Part shown: positions 1,065-8,870 of the stretch, piece by piece
Position numbering within the stretch: position 1 is the stretch's first letter
Layout of the letters: each line of letters begins with the position of its first letter
Source: a virus
Taxonomy: Duplodnaviria > Caudoviricetes
Direction: 5' to 3' (one strand)
IMG/VR virus record: IMGVR_UViG_3300029305_006500
DNA: 64,000 bases
Position numbers and translations under genes: made by a program
Notes under the pieces: model-generated
Database searches by the model: none
What the model was told of the DNA's origin: nothing
The model's input: the letters and a program-made list of their open reading frames with translations, nothing else

Positions 1065-1250
1065 ATGAACTTTCAAATACGGATTCCTAAGTCAAAATGT
1101 GATTTCTGTTCCTACAAAGTAGGTAATGAGTGCACAGCCGCAAAAGCAAACGGTCAGGTTAATTCATATTATTGTAAGCAGGCACAGTATGAGTATAATC
1201 AATGGCTGTGGCAGCAGAAGCAAAAACAAAAGCCAAAGTCTTGGTGCTAA
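1065..1250 (+). CDS. Small Cys-rich hypothetical protein
   Basis: GGAG RBS; CxxC...C...C; 61 aa. Confidence 0.55.
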   Translation: MNFQIRIPKSKCDFCSYKVGNECTAAKANGQVNSYYCKQAQYEYNQWLWQQKQKQKPKSWC

Positions 1251-2069: not shown

Positions 2070-2079
2070 TGCTAAATTT
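2070..2079 (+). promoter_or_regulatory. Putative late promoter (TGCTAAATTT) in the loop of a 13-bp hairpin (2055-2091)
   Basis: Motif match; arms ACCGCCTATATTA / TAATGTAGGCGGT. Confidence 0.6.
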
Positions 2080-2084
2080 AATGT

Positions 2085-2228
2085 AGGCGGTAAGCCGACG
2101 ATACAGAAAAGATACCAGAACGATAGTGAATTTACGATACATAATTTTAAGATACCTTACAAGATACCTTAATAATTAAATATGTAAAATAGCTGTCGTC
2201 TGATAAATTTCAGGCGACTTTTCTTTTT
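2085..2228 (+). ncRNA. Candidate small RNA (or iteron array) with six A(A/C)GATAC repeats
   Basis: No ORF; lies between a promoter motif and a terminator; repeats at 2098, 2109, 2120, 2134, 2149, 2161. Confidence 0.45.
2195..2228 (+). terminator. Intrinsic terminator
   Basis: GTCGTCTGA/TCAGGCGAC stem followed by TTTTCTTTTT. Confidence 0.8.
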
Positions 2229-2292
2229 GTTCAAAATTTAAGTTTTTGATCATTGTATATTAAAATGAATATTATTTTAAGGAGTTTCTATA

Positions 2293-2814
2293 ATGATTAA
2301 ATTTTTTATTGAACCTGGTTATGAGGTAAAGCATCCTGTAAGAGACTTTGGAAATGCTGGAGTGGATGTATTTATTCCTTATGCTACTAAGGATTTTATT
2401 GAAGCTTTCAATGCAAAGAATGATGCTAAAAATGCGTATCTTACCTATGCACAGGATGCAATTATAATTGAGCCTCATGGCCGAGTAAATATTCCATCTG
2501 GCCTTAGGGCTAGAATTAGTCCTAATGTAGCGTTGGAAGCTCATAATAAGAGCGGAGTAGCTACTAAGTATGGCCTTGTATTTGGTGCATCTACTGTTGA
2601 TGCTAATTATCAAGGGATTATTCATGTTTCGTTGATTAATACCACAGCAGAAGCAGTAACTTTGCCTTTGGGAATGAAAGCAGTTCAGTTTATTCCTAGG
2701 CTTATTGATATGTCTTCTATTGAAGTAGACACTTCTGGAAATGTAGAAGACTTTTACAAAAATTTTGAATTTTCTAACCGCGGTGATGGAGCATTTGGTA
2801 GCACCGGAGTTTAA
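2293..2814 (+). CDS. dut: Trimeric dUTPase
   Basis: AGVD, KSG, VDANYQG and RGDGAFGSTG motifs. Confidence 0.92.
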   Translation: MIKFFIEPGYEVKHPVRDFGNAGVDVFIPYATKDFIEAFNAKNDAKNAYLTYAQDAIIIEPHGRVNIPSGLRARISPNVALEAHNKSGVATKYGLVFGASTVDANYQGIIHVSLINTTAEAVTLPLGMKAVQFIPRLIDMSSIEVDTSGNVEDFYKNFEFSNRGDGAFGSTGV

Positions 2815-2846
2815 GTGAAATACAAACAAAAGGAAGAGGTATAGCT

Positions 2847-3533
2847 ATGATTGAAAATTGCAGATACCGTGAAAAGTGTAATGGACGAGACTGCAATAAA
2901 GATTTTTGCATGAAAAAGTGTCGTTTAGATTGTTTGTATGATAACTCACTTTTATCAGAGACACAACGTCAGCATAAAGTTTTGTATTGTGATGCAGATG
3001 GTACTGATAGAATAGAATTTACAAAATTATCTCAAATCGAAGGAGCTATTCTTAAGTTTGTAGATGAGGGACATAATCTTTACCTGCATTCATACACTCC
3101 AGGTAATGGCAAAACAACTTTTGCCATTAGATTGCTTATGGCTTATTTTAATAAAATTTGGTCCAAATCCAATTTGACTTGTCAGGGCTTATTTGTGAGT
3201 GTACCTAGGTATTTGTTAGCTTTAAAAGAAAATATAGCTGGGCACAGTGAATATGCAGATTTTGTAAATAAAAATATTATGACTGCTGATTTAGTTGTAT
3301 TTGATGATATAGCCGCAAAAATTGGGTCTGATTTTGAATTAAATCATCTTCTCAATATTATTAATACTAGAATGGATTTAGGAAAAAGTAATATTTTTAC
3401 TTCTAATTTGGGTAAAAAAGAACTTACTACTGCGTTAGGTGAACGACTAGCAAGTAGAATTGGAAATAAGTCTATTGATATTGAGCTTCATGGTGCAGAT
3501 AAAAGAGCTTTAAGTTTGACAGGAGGTAATTAA
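2847..3533 (+). CDS. DnaC/IstB-like helicase loader ATPase
   Basis: N-terminal Cys cluster, PGNGKT Walker A, VFDD Walker B, TSN, SRI. Confidence 0.85.
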   Translation: MIENCRYREKCNGRDCNKDFCMKKCRLDCLYDNSLLSETQRQHKVLYCDADGTDRIEFTKLSQIEGAILKFVDEGHNLYLHSYTPGNGKTTFAIRLLMAYFNKIWSKSNLTCQGLFVSVPRYLLALKENIAGHSEYADFVNKNIMTADLVVFDDIAAKIGSDFELNHLLNIINTRMDLGKSNIFTSNLGKKELTTALGERLASRIGNKSIDIELHGADKRALSLTGGN

Positions 3534-4861
3534 TGACTACACAGTTTCAAATTTTAAATAAAATCTTGCAAACTGGTGATTATTCTTTAGTTTTGCTTAA
3601 TAACTTAAATGAAGAATATTTTCCCGGGTATTCTTCAGAATTTAAGTTTATTAAGAACCATTTTGAAAAATTTGGTTCAGTACCAGACCGTCTTACTTTT
3701 CTTAATACTTTTCCTGATTTTGATATTAAGGACGTAAATGAGCCTGATTCTTATTTAATTGAACAAGTTAATAAGGATTATAATGCTCAGTATATTGCTA
3801 AACAATTTAATATCCTTAAAAAATTTATTGAAGAAGATAAAATTGACGATGCAGTAGCATATTTAGTTAATGCTGCAAATAATATTCATCAAAATGCTTC
3901 TATGACCTGCACAGATCTTTTCCAAGATACTAGTCGTTATGATAAGTACGTTGAAAGAGTCAATAGTAGAGATAAATTTTTTATTAAAACTGGTTTTGAT
4001 GAACTTGATGCTATTATTGGTGGTATTGACGTAAAAGAAGAAAATATGGTGATTGCTGCACGTACTGGTAAAGGAAAGTCTTGGACACTTTTGAGAATTG
4101 CGGTAGAAGCTGCTAGACAAGGTTTTACAGTAGGACTTTATTCAGGTGAAATGTCTGCTGATAAGGTAGGTTATCGTGTTGATACTCTTTTAGGTCATAT
4201 TGATAATAAAGCAATTACTCGAGGCTCAGGAAATTATGATCCTTCAGTCGGTCTAGCATACAAGCAATATATAGATAACTTACCTACTGCGCTTCCCGGA
4301 ACTATAAAAGTACTTACTCCAAATGATATTAATGGCCCAGCTACTGTTGGAGCTTTACGTACTTTTGTAGAAAAAGAAAATATTCAAATTTTGCTTATCG
4401 ATCAGTATTCCTTGCTTGAAGACCAACATCATGCAAAAGTTATGCATGAAAAGGTAGCTAATATCTCAAAAGATATTAAAAATCTACAGGTTATGAAACA
4501 GATTCCAATCGTGTCGGTCTCTCAGATGAATAGAACAAAAAATGAGGATGGAGAGCAAGATACTACTCAAATTGGCTTATCTGATAGAATTGGTCAGGAT
4601 GCCACTTGTATTATTATGCTAGACAGAGATGTTACTTACAGCGACCCTGAAAAAAGAGTTGTTTCAGCTGATAAGCTTGTCCTTAATTTAGTAAAGTCTA
4701 GAGACGGTGGTGAGGGTAAATTAGTTTATGATGCTGATTTTAATACTGGTAGATTTACTTTTCTTAATCCTAATCTAACTGAGGCTCAATCTGAAGCAAT
4801 GGAAACTTATTATGAGGAAGATGAAGGCTCTTATGATCCTTCTGTAGCTGCTCCATGGTAA
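3533..4861 (+). CDS. dnaB: DnaB-like replicative helicase
   Basis: ARTGKGKS, SGEM, IDQ, SQMNR, IGQDA, KSRDG. Confidence 0.92.
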   Translation: MTTQFQILNKILQTGDYSLVLLNNLNEEYFPGYSSEFKFIKNHFEKFGSVPDRLTFLNTFPDFDIKDVNEPDSYLIEQVNKDYNAQYIAKQFNILKKFIEEDKIDDAVAYLVNAANNIHQNASMTCTDLFQDTSRYDKYVERVNSRDKFFIKTGFDELDAIIGGIDVKEENMVIAARTGKGKSWTLLRIAVEAARQGFTVGLYSGEMSADKVGYRVDTLLGHIDNKAITRGSGNYDPSVGLAYKQYIDNLPTALPGTIKVLTPNDINGPATVGALRTFVEKENIQILLIDQYSLLEDQHHAKVMHEKVANISKDIKNLQVMKQIPIVSVSQMNRTKNEDGEQDTTQIGLSDRIGQDATCIIMLDRDVTYSDPEKRVVSADKLVLNLVKSRDGGEGKLVYDADFNTGRFTFLNPNLTEAQSEAMETYYEEDEGSYDPSVAAPW

Positions 4862-4867
4862 TATAAA

Positions 4868-5836
4868 ATGAGAAAGTTAAAGATAGATAATTATATTTTA
4901 GAAGTTCCTGTAATTGAAGTTCTACGACGATTACAACTTACATTAACCAATGGTAAATTAAAAGAAGTTAAAGATGGTACAGAAAATATTCTAGTTACTT
5001 GTCCAGACCATAGTGGTGGACGAGAATCTCATCCTGCTTGTAATATTTATGTTGGTGATGATTCAAAAATTGAATATGGTTATTTTAATTGTTTTGTATG
5101 TAATTCTCGTGGGACTTTTTTAACGTTTGTAGCTCATTGTTTTGAGACTTCAGAAGCTTATGCAAAAAGCTGGCTTTTAAAAAATTTTAAAGGTCAGATG
5201 GTTGAGCAATATATTTTCATGGGAGAAGATATACAGCCGGGTAAAAATAAGCGAAAAGCAATCCCAAAACTTGATGAGTCTATATTAGATCAATATCAAA
5301 AATGGACGCCCTACCTTGCACAAAGAAAATTGTCTAGAGAATTATGTGAGTTTTTTAAAGTACGCTATGACCCGAAATATCGGCAAGTGATTTTTCCTGC
5401 TTATGATATTCACGGTAATTTAGTAATGCTTCCTAAAAGGTCGATAGATACTAAGACTTTTTACTTAGATAAGGAACAAGAAAAACCAGTATATTGTCTT
5501 AACTATATAGAGCAATATGGATATAAAACAGCATTAGTTACTGAAGGCCCTTTTGATACTTTGACTGGTTGGCAGTATGGCTTTCCTACTATTGGGATGT
5601 GGGGACAGTTTTCGGATTATCAAATTGAGCAAATAAATAAATCTTGCTTAAATGTCCTATATATCGCTTTTGATAATGATGAAGCAGGTGAAAGATTTCG
5701 ACGAGCTTTAAAGGCAAGATTGAGTAATAGATTTATTTTGGTAGATGTAAAGTTACCAAAAGGGAAAAAAGATATTAATGACTTGACTAAAGAAGAATTT
5801 TTAGCCTGCATTCAAGAAGCTTCAAATTCACTCTAA
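4868..5836 (+). CDS. dnaG: DnaG-type primase
   Basis: CPDH...CFVC zinc finger; TOPRIM TEGPFD and FDNDEAG; KDIND. Confidence 0.9.
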   Translation: MRKLKIDNYILEVPVIEVLRRLQLTLTNGKLKEVKDGTENILVTCPDHSGGRESHPACNIYVGDDSKIEYGYFNCFVCNSRGTFLTFVAHCFETSEAYAKSWLLKNFKGQMVEQYIFMGEDIQPGKNKRKAIPKLDESILDQYQKWTPYLAQRKLSRELCEFFKVRYDPKYRQVIFPAYDIHGNLVMLPKRSIDTKTFYLDKEQEKPVYCLNYIEQYGYKTALVTEGPFDTLTGWQYGFPTIGMWGQFSDYQIEQINKSCLNVLYIAFDNDEAGERFRRALKARLSNRFILVDVKLPKGKKDINDLTKEEFLACIQEASNSL

Positions 5837-5851: not shown

Positions 5852-5927
5852 ATATATATAGAAAACTTTGTGACGGAAGTCACGCGATAAAATTAAAATA
5901 TATTTTTTATTAAGGAGAAAATTAAAA

Positions 5928-6944
5928 ATGTCAAATTTTGATTACAATCAGTACCAAGAAGTTATTGCTAGAGCACAGAACGGATCTAATGGTTCCTCTA
6001 CGAAAATCGGCTTTTTTAAGATGAAAAATGATAAAGACGAGGCTCTTGTTCGATTTAATATCTCGTCACTCGATGAGCTTCAGTTTGCAACAGTTCATCA
6101 GCTTGGCGCAGCACAAAAGTGGATGAAGGTTAGTTGTCTTAATCCTGTAGGTTCATATTATGATACTTGCCCTCTTTGTGCAGCAGTAGCTGGGGGAGCA
6201 AAGGATATTGGAAAAGCTTCTAAGAAGGTTTATGTACAAATGCTTGTAGCATATAAGGATAATACAACAGGGCAGTTTTCTGCAGCTATTCCTGTAATTT
6301 GGGAACGCCCTGCCGGATTTTCAAGAGAAATCGCAAATCTTCTTAAAGATTATGGTGATCTTAAAACTAGAGTATTTAAAGTAACTCGTAATGGTGTAGC
6401 TAATAGCATGCAGACTACTTACAGTATTTCGTATATTCCTCTTTTTGATAAGCCTGAAAGCGTACCAGAAGATTTCAGTGCTTTTGCAAATTTTAATATT
6501 GCAAAGCATAGCTTTTGGGAGAAAACTGCAGGCGAGATTCAAGTATTTCTTAATACTGGTTCTTTTCCAGAAGTAGCTAGAGCTCCTCAAGCGCCTATGC
6601 CTACTGACGCAGATGCTCCTTATCAAGCCCCAGCTACTGTAGTACATACTCCTGCAACAGAAAGTTTCACTACTCCTGCACAGCCTGCTTTTGTACCCCC
6701 TGTAACTACTCCTGAAGTAGCTCCTTGGGAATCTCCTAATACAACACCTGCTTTTGTGCCAGGTATTACTACTACACCTGCAACGATTCCTAATCCCGTA
6801 AATCCTGCAGTAGAGATTCCTGGAACAACAGTACCTAATATTAGTACTGCAGAAAATCCTACACAGACTGAGGTGTCTACTTCAACCGCCGCTGATTTCG
6901 GTAGACCTGGACGTAGCTTTGGTGATGGAAATTGGTCATTTTAA
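5928..6944 (+). CDS. Single-stranded DNA-binding protein (gp32-like) with Pro/Thr-rich tail
   Basis: H..C..CPLC zinc motif, KVTRNG...TTY, position between primase and polymerase. Confidence 0.75.
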   Translation: MSNFDYNQYQEVIARAQNGSNGSSTKIGFFKMKNDKDEALVRFNISSLDELQFATVHQLGAAQKWMKVSCLNPVGSYYDTCPLCAAVAGGAKDIGKASKKVYVQMLVAYKDNTTGQFSAAIPVIWERPAGFSREIANLLKDYGDLKTRVFKVTRNGVANSMQTTYSISYIPLFDKPESVPEDFSAFANFNIAKHSFWEKTAGEIQVFLNTGSFPEVARAPQAPMPTDADAPYQAPATVVHTPATESFTTPAQPAFVPPVTTPEVAPWESPNTTPAFVPGITTTPATIPNPVNPAVEIPGTTVPNISTAENPTQTEVSTSTAADFGRPGRSFGDGNWSF

Positions 6945-6972: not shown

Positions 6973-8799
6973 ATGGATATTGGACTTTTCGGAACTGACT
7001 TTGATATTGATATTACAAAAACAAAGTCAGACGTAAAACAGTTACTTAAAAAGCTTAATCCTGAGTTTACAGAACCAGGTGCTCAAAATACTGAAAAGAT
7101 CTTAAAATCAAAAAAGCTTTCCATTCAAGAACGCCTTGAGATAATTAATGATAAAGTCATCAAGATTCTCGGAAAGCAACGACATAATACAGTTGTAATT
7201 CGAAGTCTTGATGACTTCATTGCTTATATAAATAAAGCTATTCAAAATGGCGTTATTGCAGTGGACACCGAGACGAATAATAGTTTGGATCCTGTTACTT
7301 GTAAACTAATGGGTCTCTGCTTATATACTCCAGGCGAAAGACAAGCCTATATTCCTATTAATCATGTAGATTGGCAAACTGAAGAACTACTTGCAAATCA
7401 GCTTACTGAGGAAGATTGTAGACAACAGCTTCAAAGAATTAAAGATAATAATACTTTTGTTATTATGCATAATGGTAAGTTCGATTATGAAGTTATTAAG
7501 ACCACTTGTCATATCGATTTGCCGCCCAATTGGGATACAATGGTAGCTGCAAGACTTTTAGATGAAAATGAATTAGCTGGTTTGAAATATCAGTATACTA
7601 CAAAAATTGACCCGTCTCAGTCTAAATATGATATTGAAAGCTTATTTGAAAATGTGCAGTATGCTTTTGTAAATCCGGAGATCTTTGCTCTTTATGCTGC
7701 TACTGACTCAATGATGACCTATAAGCTTTATTTGTGGCAGCTACCTTTTATGACTTCCCCAGAGCTAGAAAGACTTTATTGGGTATTCTTGAATATTGAA
7801 ATGCCTATTGTAGTTGTAACCGCAGAAATGGAGCTTAAGGGAGTAAGCATTAATACTAAGTTTGGTAAAAAGCTAAAAATAAAATATAAGCAGCAATTAG
7901 CAGAGATAGATACTGAAATAGAAAAAGAGCTTGATAAATTAAAGCCTTTAATTTCTGAATGGCGAGAAGATGAAACTCGTGGTGGGGCATATTCTAAGAT
8001 GTATATGCCAAAGAAATCTAAAAAGTCACAGGAGGAGTTAGAAGCTATTTATACCGCTATTGAACCTGATCAGATTCCTTCAGGAAAAAAAGATAGAACT
8101 GGTAAAGATATTTTAGTGAAAAACCCTAATGCCGGTAGAAGATATAAATTTGGTAAAAAAGCTTCTGAAATGTTGAGTGACCCTATTAATCTTGCATCTC
8201 CTGCACAGCTTGCTATTCTATTCTATGATATTTTGAATTGCCCTGCTGTAAGTAAAAAAGCACCAAGAGGTACAGGTGAAAGCGAATTAGAAGCTATTGC
8301 AGAAAAGCGACCAGATTTACAAATTTGTAAGCTTATTTTGAAACGTAGGGGCATTGTAAAACTTATTACTACTTATATAGATGTCATTCCTGATTTAGTG
8401 AAACATTGGCCAGATGGTAGAATTCGTTTTCATCTCAATGCTCAGGGTACAGATACTGGTAGATATAGTTCCGGAGGAAAACTTAAATTTTTTGAGAATG
8501 GTGAACCAGTAGTAGTTTCTGGTATTAATATTCAAAATATTCCTTCACATAATAAGGAAATTAGAATGCTATTTCAGGGAGATACAAAATATCATGAGGT
8601 GGAGTCTTCTAATCAATGGTTTGATGTCCCTGAAACTGATGAAGTTGAAGTGCTTGATGCTGAAGGTAGATTAGTGTGGAAATTTGTATCAGAACTTGAA
8701 ATTGGTGACGAGGTTAATTTAGAAACTGAAAATGGTATTGGAACTTGGCATATTCAGGCCATTGAAAAACAAGATAAAGTATATCGTATAAGATTTTGA
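6973..8799 (+). CDS. polA: DNA polymerase A, N-terminal part (3'-5' exonuclease, thumb, pre-motif A) with intein-like C-terminal extension
   Basis: VDTET, HNGKFD, YAATD exonuclease motifs; TDTGRYSS, NIQNIP, EIRMLF. Confidence 0.9.
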   Translation: MDIGLFGTDFDIDITKTKSDVKQLLKKLNPEFTEPGAQNTEKILKSKKLSIQERLEIINDKVIKILGKQRHNTVVIRSLDDFIAYINKAIQNGVIAVDTETNNSLDPVTCKLMGLCLYTPGERQAYIPINHVDWQTEELLANQLTEEDCRQQLQRIKDNNTFVIMHNGKFDYEVIKTTCHIDLPPNWDTMVAARLLDENELAGLKYQYTTKIDPSQSKYDIESLFENVQYAFVNPEIFALYAATDSMMTYKLYLWQLPFMTSPELERLYWVFLNIEMPIVVVTAEMELKGVSINTKFGKKLKIKYKQQLAEIDTEIEKELDKLKPLISEWREDETRGGAYSKMYMPKKSKKSQEELEAIYTAIEPDQIPSGKKDRTGKDILVKNPNAGRRYKFGKKASEMLSDPINLASPAQLAILFYDILNCPAVSKKAPRGTGESELEAIAEKRPDLQICKLILKRRGIVKLITTYIDVIPDLVKHWPDGRIRFHLNAQGTDTGRYSSGGKLKFFENGEPVVVSGINIQNIPSHNKEIRMLFQGDTKYHEVESSNQWFDVPETDEVEVLDAEGRLVWKFVSELEIGDEVNLETENGIGTWHIQAIEKQDKVYRIRF

Positions 8800-8811
8800 A
8801 AGAAGGTGATT

Positions 8812-8868
8812 ATGATGAAGTTAAAGACACGAACTAGATATATGCTAGTCGGCTCTGACTTCTCCTAG
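8812..8868 (+). CDS. polA: 18-codon PolA segment carrying the motif A catalytic Asp (MMKLKTRTRYMLVGSDFS*)
   Basis: AAGGTGAT RBS; LVGSDFS is the first half of motif A and continues as AQEPR after 5 extra nt. Confidence 0.8.
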   Translation: MMKLKTRTRYMLVGSDFS

Positions 8869-8870
8869 CT

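Follow-up and report, generated by a model that had tools for sequence, protein, structure and literature searches.

A run of short repeats upstream of the replication genes of a phage, between a late-type promoter and an intrinsic terminator, is, judged by comparison with relatives, part of a real, conserved and uncatalogued regulatory RNA of gut and rumen jumbo phages. The folds modelled for this RNA make it probable that the element is a transcription attenuator gated by a protein, with TRAP-like logic, at the head of the replisome operon. Given an attenuator, the gp32-type single-stranded DNA binding protein (SSB) of the phage is the favoured candidate for its ligand, and the conjunction of the two, an attenuator with this SSB as ligand, has rather less than an even chance. 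The argument is built on the sequence, its conservation, its position, the alternative pairings, the shared repeat word and the gp32 fold, all of which are shown.

The window is the whole stretch of 64,000 nucleotides that was analysed; it begins a virus record of 67 kb that is about 30% complete and covers its leading 64 kb. The phage is classified as a jumbo phage because a relative with an 89% identical SSB is carried by a 221-kb, 95% complete contig. The relatives come mostly from gut and rumen samples, as given by the sample titles and, for the remainder, deduced from accessions. The element is flanked by a lipase-family gene (1313-2041) and by a run of genes for dUTPase, DnaC-like loader, helicase, primase, SSB, PolA, clamp and RecU (Table 1).

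Table 1. Coordinates of the element, the genes that follow it and the SSB leader (positions in the window)
Feature	Position	Strand	Basis or remark
13-bp hairpin, late promoter in loop	2055-2067 pairs with 2079-2091	+	folding
Phage late-type promoter word GCTAAATT(T)	2071-2079	+	motif
Small 5' hairpin, 3 bp in the window	2086-2096	+	folding
Six A(A/C)GATA(C/G) units, putative protein-binding sites	2098-2167	+	motif positions
Antiterminator 5' strand including unit 3	2116-2127	+	pairs with 2192-2202, 11 bp, one bulged A
Long A/U-rich irregular stem with units 4-6, continuous with antiterminator	2127-2194	+	folding
Intrinsic terminator	stem 2195-2218, U-tract 2219-2228	+	folding
Early-type -10 word GTATA(A/T)T, 3' of terminator	2253-2261	+	kept in relatives
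dUTPase	2293-2814	+	first gene of proposed gated operon
DnaC-like loader	2847-3533	+	operon gene
DnaB-like helicase	3533-4861	+	operon gene
Primase	4868-5836	+	operon gene
SSB mRNA leader: hairpin 5870-5883, GATAA (5886), AATAT (5897), Shine-Dalgarno 5913-5917	5870-5917	+	motif
gp32-fold SSB, His/Cys3 zinc site; proposed ligand	5928-6944	+	structure model

Several features of the neighbourhood may be recorded here in their own right. The PolA gene of the window is interrupted by a TGA stop and a short gap (8799-8898). In-frame TGA codons aligned with Trp of relatives occur in the lipase gene of L002, L005, L019 and L170 (3, 5, 1 and 3 cases, respectively); part of the phage group therefore reads TGA as Trp, whereas the window uses code 11, and this reading of TGA suggests that some members infect code-4 hosts. 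The dUTPase type is swapped at the same position (about 136-139 aa versus about 173-189 aa) in L003, L005, L019, L031, L033 and L035. Genes for FTHFS, FolD, a formate/nitrite transporter, DHFR and thymidylate synthase lie upstream of the dUTPase in L029, L030, L031 and L035, L036 encodes a pyruvate-formate-lyase-like glycyl radical enzyme, and a gene that adjoins the replication cluster of L031 (19393-19641) matches the anti-defence family Tad8 (PF25189).

The original prediction had described six repeat units in this region, and all were recovered at their exact positions: ACGATAC (2098), AAGATAC (2109), ACGATAG (2120), ACGATAC (2134), AAGATAC (2149) and AAGATAC (2161), spaced by 11, 11, 14, 15 and 12 nt. 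When the 251-nt intergenic region is shuffled, at least three units arise in 1 of 20,000 shuffles (5e-5), compared with the six observed, and the cluster is the only dense one of GATAC in the whole 67-kb record. The region is also free of reading frames, as had been claimed, in the sense that no ORF of at least 40 aa overlaps positions 2042-2271. The proposed late-promoter motif holds as well, at 2071: GCTAAATT(A/T) has 12 copies on the + strand and 0 on the − strand across the record (control 1 and 2), its copies precede head and tail (virion) genes, and because of this strand bias and location the promoter is taken to be late. By analogy with T4 late promoters, transcription presumably starts at about 2083-2086. 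The hairpin that has the promoter in its loop can form only in transcripts that read through from upstream, and it is kept with compensatory changes within the clade of the window. Upstream of the lipase-family gene (1259-1298), the loop of a second hairpin likewise contains the late promoter word; with the U-rich tail that follows it, this hairpin may be a terminator and a late promoter overlaid.

Relatives were gathered by loader and SSB searches, and homologues of the element were identified by visual inspection and by a covariance-model search. Conservation of the repeats, which had been named as a test of their significance, is found in about 26 distinct relatives with SSBs that are 50-97% identical, in one copy per genome. 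The common layout is a promoter, a 5' hairpin of free sequence (5-11 bp in relatives, with unrelated sequences), three to six GATA(C/A/G/T) units spaced by 10-16 nt within and between genomes, a long A/U stem, a terminator and an early-type promoter, and the length of the RNA is 136-165 nt in 21 homologues. Repeat word and stems are conserved, while the flanks have diverged (56% column identity). In 20 of 23 mapped cases the element lies immediately before the dUTPase and loader genes, even when the dUTPase type is swapped; in two of the others a nuclease-like insert separates them, and in L029 the element is displaced to a site before other genes, while the dUTPase is preceded by a terminator-like hairpin. 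L005, L019 and L166 lack a late promoter of their own and the 5' hairpin, L004 has an insert of about 110 nt after the promoter, and all four keep units, stem and terminator, from which it follows that the 3' part, and not a defined 5' end, is the conserved portion. The Rfam search that the original prediction had recommended gave chance terminator-like matches only, in gathering as well as E-value mode. A search for tRNA and tmRNA found none, blastn against GenBank phages gave no match, and a looser repeat pattern scanned over the sequence collection returned mostly unrelated contigs. Apart from the element, a long GATAC-containing hairpin is found upstream of homing-nuclease-like ORFs and 3' of a late promoter in L003 (1098-1160) and L005 (903-960); these hairpins look like the T4-type hairpins that sequester ribosome-binding sites.

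To see the alternative pairings, consider a nascent RNA that has been folded up to the terminator loop only. For all of the 21 homologues treated in this way, the nascent fold captures 5-9 bases of the terminator 5' arm; in the window, 8 of the 9 arm bases are taken up by pairing with unit 3 and its flank. The strong terminator that had been proposed at 2195-2228 is thus present as regards stem and U-tract, but the upstream antiterminator is predicted to sequester its 5' arm. In 9 of 22 control terminators, half of the arm is likewise paired before the 3' arm has been made, and because such chance pairing is frequent, covariation was sought. Within a clade of 15 members, pairing amounts to 95% in the antiterminator helix and to 100% in the terminator, and in L005 a three-way change, C to T in the upstream unit, G to A in the terminator 5' arm and C to T in the 3' arm, preserves both pairings. 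In a comparison of six clades, the antiterminators differ in their distal bases, and these bases fit their cognate arms better than permuted ones (p 0.006 and 0.03), where the p-values overstate independence since the leaders are homologous, and where the large clade B adds little distal pairing. Pairing of the arm only, evaluated per sequence, did not differ significantly from shuffles.

The binding of a ligand was mimicked in silico by forcing units to be unpaired. At equilibrium, the terminator of the window is formed with probability 0.13 in the free RNA, a value that blocking of unit 3 raises to 0.99. The probability is 0.42 when unit 2 is blocked and does not change when units 1, 4, 5 or 6 are blocked singly, and the two folds of the window differ by at most 0.5 kcal/mol. 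In 16 of 26 homologues the terminator probability of the free RNA is at most 0.64, and with the units blocked it is at least 0.84 in all; ordinary control terminators have a probability of at least 0.91 in 15 of 18 cases. The main weakness of the switch reading is that the terminator is dominant even in the free RNA of ten homologues, with probabilities of 0.8-0.97 in clades L036, L184, L029 and L186 and in L005/L019. Since the terminator wins at equilibrium in those clades, a switch there would have to be kinetic. As expected for an attenuator, the computations thus give a conserved antiterminator that is mutually exclusive with an intrinsic terminator, more weakly so in some clades, and the promoter is followed by a co-oriented operon without further terminator in the window and in 20 of 23 homologues, with L029 as an exception. 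Between the dUTPase, loader, helicase and primase genes (2293-5836), no terminator-like hairpin was found. What counts against an attenuator is the early-type promoter after the terminator, by which the operon may have an ungated route, independent of read-through.

The identity of the ligand is suggested by the SSB gene. The sequence of its protein gave no match in the PDB, and the identification is by fold search only, in which the model matched T4/RB69 gp32 (Foldseek: 1gpc, E 1.5e-4; 2a1k, E 1.6e-4; prob 1.0). The most enriched pentamer of SSB leaders is GATAC, with 25 occurrences versus 0.7 in shuffles. It is present in 19 of 30 SSB leaders versus 5 of 220 other leaders, and GATA(C/A) in 27 of 30 versus 15 of 220. 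Most relatives have one or two GATAC/GATAA units in this leader, L002 having two perfect ones and the window degenerate ones only; paired units are 12-15 nt apart, and SSB is the sole place in two long records at which the tandem word is accompanied by a Shine-Dalgarno sequence. The distance from the last unit to the Shine-Dalgarno sequence is 5-16 nt in 29 of 30 leaders, while the distance from the -10 word to the Shine-Dalgarno sequence ranges over 32-69. A unit that is anchored to the Shine-Dalgarno sequence while the promoter moves indicates an RNA operator. The 5' structure of the leader is a simple hairpin in most cases and missing in some, and no pseudoknot was seen. Four closer loci, L030, L031, L035 and L182, have the word in the SSB leader and no element within 10 kb, and two distant phages (SSB 32-37%) are without the word in the leader, the complete one of them also without the element.

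From a regulon that consists of a single gene, and that the gene for gp32, autogenous control follows as the simplest reading. In T4 and RB69, gp32 represses its own translation via a structure and A/U repeats and is released from this task by ssDNA (PMC535899, PMC3014915). Another phage or host protein is a possible ligand. One that was considered is a conserved Cys-rich protein of 57-63 aa, encoded near the element in many relatives, the position of which relative to the element varies; the copy of the window (1065-1250, 61 aa) could be assigned to no family. RegA (PF01818) had no match in five records, and its control was likewise without a match anywhere. The unit spacing of 10-16 nt counts against SSB, as it exceeds the T4 gp32 site of about 7 nt.

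To exemplify how the element might work with SSB as ligand, consider the course of an infection. Early, the operon would be driven from the promoter 3' of the terminator, and late its supply would rely on read-through from GCTAAATT promoters. The late RNA would fold the A/U-rich stem first, the base of which (unit 3 and flank) would take the terminator 5' arm, and the polymerase would then continue into dUTPase, loader, helicase, primase, SSB and PolA. When SSB is occupied on ssDNA, the antiterminator would form, the replisome genes would be transcribed and SSB would be translated. When protein is bound to the GAUA(C) units, it would cover or melt the antiterminator strand, the terminator would form and an RNA of about 143 nt would be released, and the same protein on the one or two units beside the SSB Shine-Dalgarno sequence would block translation of SSB. 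Since free SSB rises once the ssDNA is saturated, the late supply of the replisome would follow the ssDNA load. Transcription, switching, binding and the identity of the ligand are what we infer here. That a gp32-family SSB reads GAUA(C), as an autorepressor and as the attenuation protein by which free ssDNA gates late replisome transcription, with the released 143-nt RNA as its buffer, is offered as a tentative proposal. A literature search, which covered few subscription papers, returned nothing relevant on SSB-dependent attenuation or on phage SSB decoy RNAs.

If the released RNA buffers the ligand, a sponge survives as part of the attenuator, and the two roles are compatible. A sponge may also be thought of as the primary function: the terminated RNA of about 143 nt would act in trans and titrate, CsrB-style, a repressor of SSB translation (SSB or another protein), so that SSB is derepressed late, and the extra pairing would merely reflect the resemblance of the terminator arms to the repeat word. 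This would account for an element of constant length that comes with a 5' hairpin, a terminator and a promoter of its own, with four to six units compared to one or two in the SSB leader, as well as for the promoter of the downstream genes, the displaced element of L029 and the dominant terminator of several clades. It does not account for half of the units being buried in a stem instead of displayed in loops, for the persistence of the promoter-less or 5'-extended variants (L004, L005, L019, L166) or for the near-fixed site upstream of the operon (20 of 23), and the three-way covariation and clade-matched distal pairing would be purposeless; such a sponge is rated as unlikely, but as the main rival of the attenuator. 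The decoy RNA of the original prediction was right in so far as the RNA is conserved and structured, with repeats that resemble multivalent protein sites, but a free-standing decoy is not the best reading. A free-standing decoy for a host protein or a defence RNase is disfavoured because the repeats make up the 5' strand of an antiterminator in competition with the terminator, because repeats, stem and terminator stay in place in variants that are devoid of promoter or 5' hairpin, and because the word is conserved at just one further site, the ribosome-binding region of the phage SSB.

The repeats could, alternatively, function as DNA, either as origin iterons, which had been the alternative suggested from the start, or an unwinding element, in an origin that might be primed by an R-loop from the late promoter, or as the operator array of a DNA repressor. 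An A/T-rich, single-copy region upstream of loader, helicase and primase in which direct repeats follow each other at intervals near 11-12 bp is what one would look for, but identical repeats in fixed helical phase were not found, the spacing varying from 10 to 16. Further, the stems covary with G-U pairs, the second site, in the SSB leader, tracks the Shine-Dalgarno sequence and not the promoter, and the proposed check of GC skew gave no inflection near 2.1 kb (the record being 30% complete, this test is weak), which leaves a DNA-level site improbable. A mimic of an antitoxin or defence RNA (pseudo-ToxI of phage phiTE, type III TA, VIPR guide), the other idea raised at the outset, has in its favour only that a phage RNA bears repeats. 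ToxI consists of repeated pseudoknot units of about 36 nt, whereas the present repeats measure 5-7 nt and recur every 10-16 nt, with no tandem pseudoknots of that kind and no Rfam match, and neither the long-range conservation in the replication operon nor the mirror in the SSB leader is needed for a host-defence decoy. The five-base GGY/NN period of a VIPR guide is absent from the element (bioRxiv 10.64898/2026.04.26.720920), and a mimic is very improbable. Just as improbable is an ordinary terminator with A/U repeats that are non-functional or enhance ribosome binding: control arms do often pair upstream by chance, but word and stems are kept where the flanks diverge, and the word is specific to one gene leader. 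Least credible of all is an antisense sRNA that would base-pair with the SSB leader through the 3' strand of the stem, as the duplex beats shuffles in the window, L023 and L036 (p 0.01-0.03) but not in 15 of 18 cognate pairs, and this pairing is largely refuted since it is not conserved.

The proposed attenuator has parallels among known systems. Like the B. subtilis trp leader regulated by TRAP (PMC4347634), it has a 5' hairpin and then repeats over an antiterminator that is exclusive with a terminator, and in both systems the repeat word is found also beside a ribosome-binding site, where it leads to translational repression in the case of TRAP. Unlike the 9-11 (G/U)AG (NAG) triplets of TRAP with spacers of about 2 nt, the element has four to six copies of GAUA(C), one every 10-16 nt, and its operon serves phage replication and not tryptophan. 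Membership in the TRAP/trp leader family was rejected: the triplets and the TRAP protein were not found, the word is unfit for host TRAP, and a TRAP gene is absent in five phage records including one that is 95% complete. With the T4/RB69 gene 32 operator (PMC535899, PMC3014915) the system shares a gp32-fold SSB, a 5' structure and A/U-rich repeats up to the Shine-Dalgarno sequence. It differs by a hairpin, often absent, instead of the T4 pseudoknot, by GAUA(C) instead of UUAAA, and by a second, multimeric copy that would gate transcription of an operon, which is not described for T4 (PMC535899, PMC3014915). The proposed mode of action is that of the autogenous B. subtilis rplJL attenuator (PMC4538822), to the family of which the element does not belong; in rplJL, an rRNA-mimicking anti-antiterminator is stabilised by the protein, whereas here linear repeats lie in the antiterminator strand. 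As in CsrB/CsrC (PMC4347634), a word that is present several times in the RNA recurs at the ribosome-binding site of a target, but CsrB has its GGA sites in loops and no alternative terminator fold, while the present sites are in the antiterminator stem. A CsrB-type RNA was rejected, since GGA loop sites and a match to the CsrB/Rsm families of Rfam were not found.

If SSB is the ligand, the autoregulation of SSB would be extended from translation to transcription attenuation of the replication operon. How gp32-type SSBs recognise their own mRNA among other nucleic acids has been stated as an open question (PMC535899, PMC3014915). To this question the comparative data supply a candidate recognition word, monomeric in the leader and multimeric in the attenuator, together with a simple read-out, termination versus read-through. 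Even with another ligand, the element represents an uncatalogued family of regulatory RNA in abundant jumbo phages of gut and rumen.
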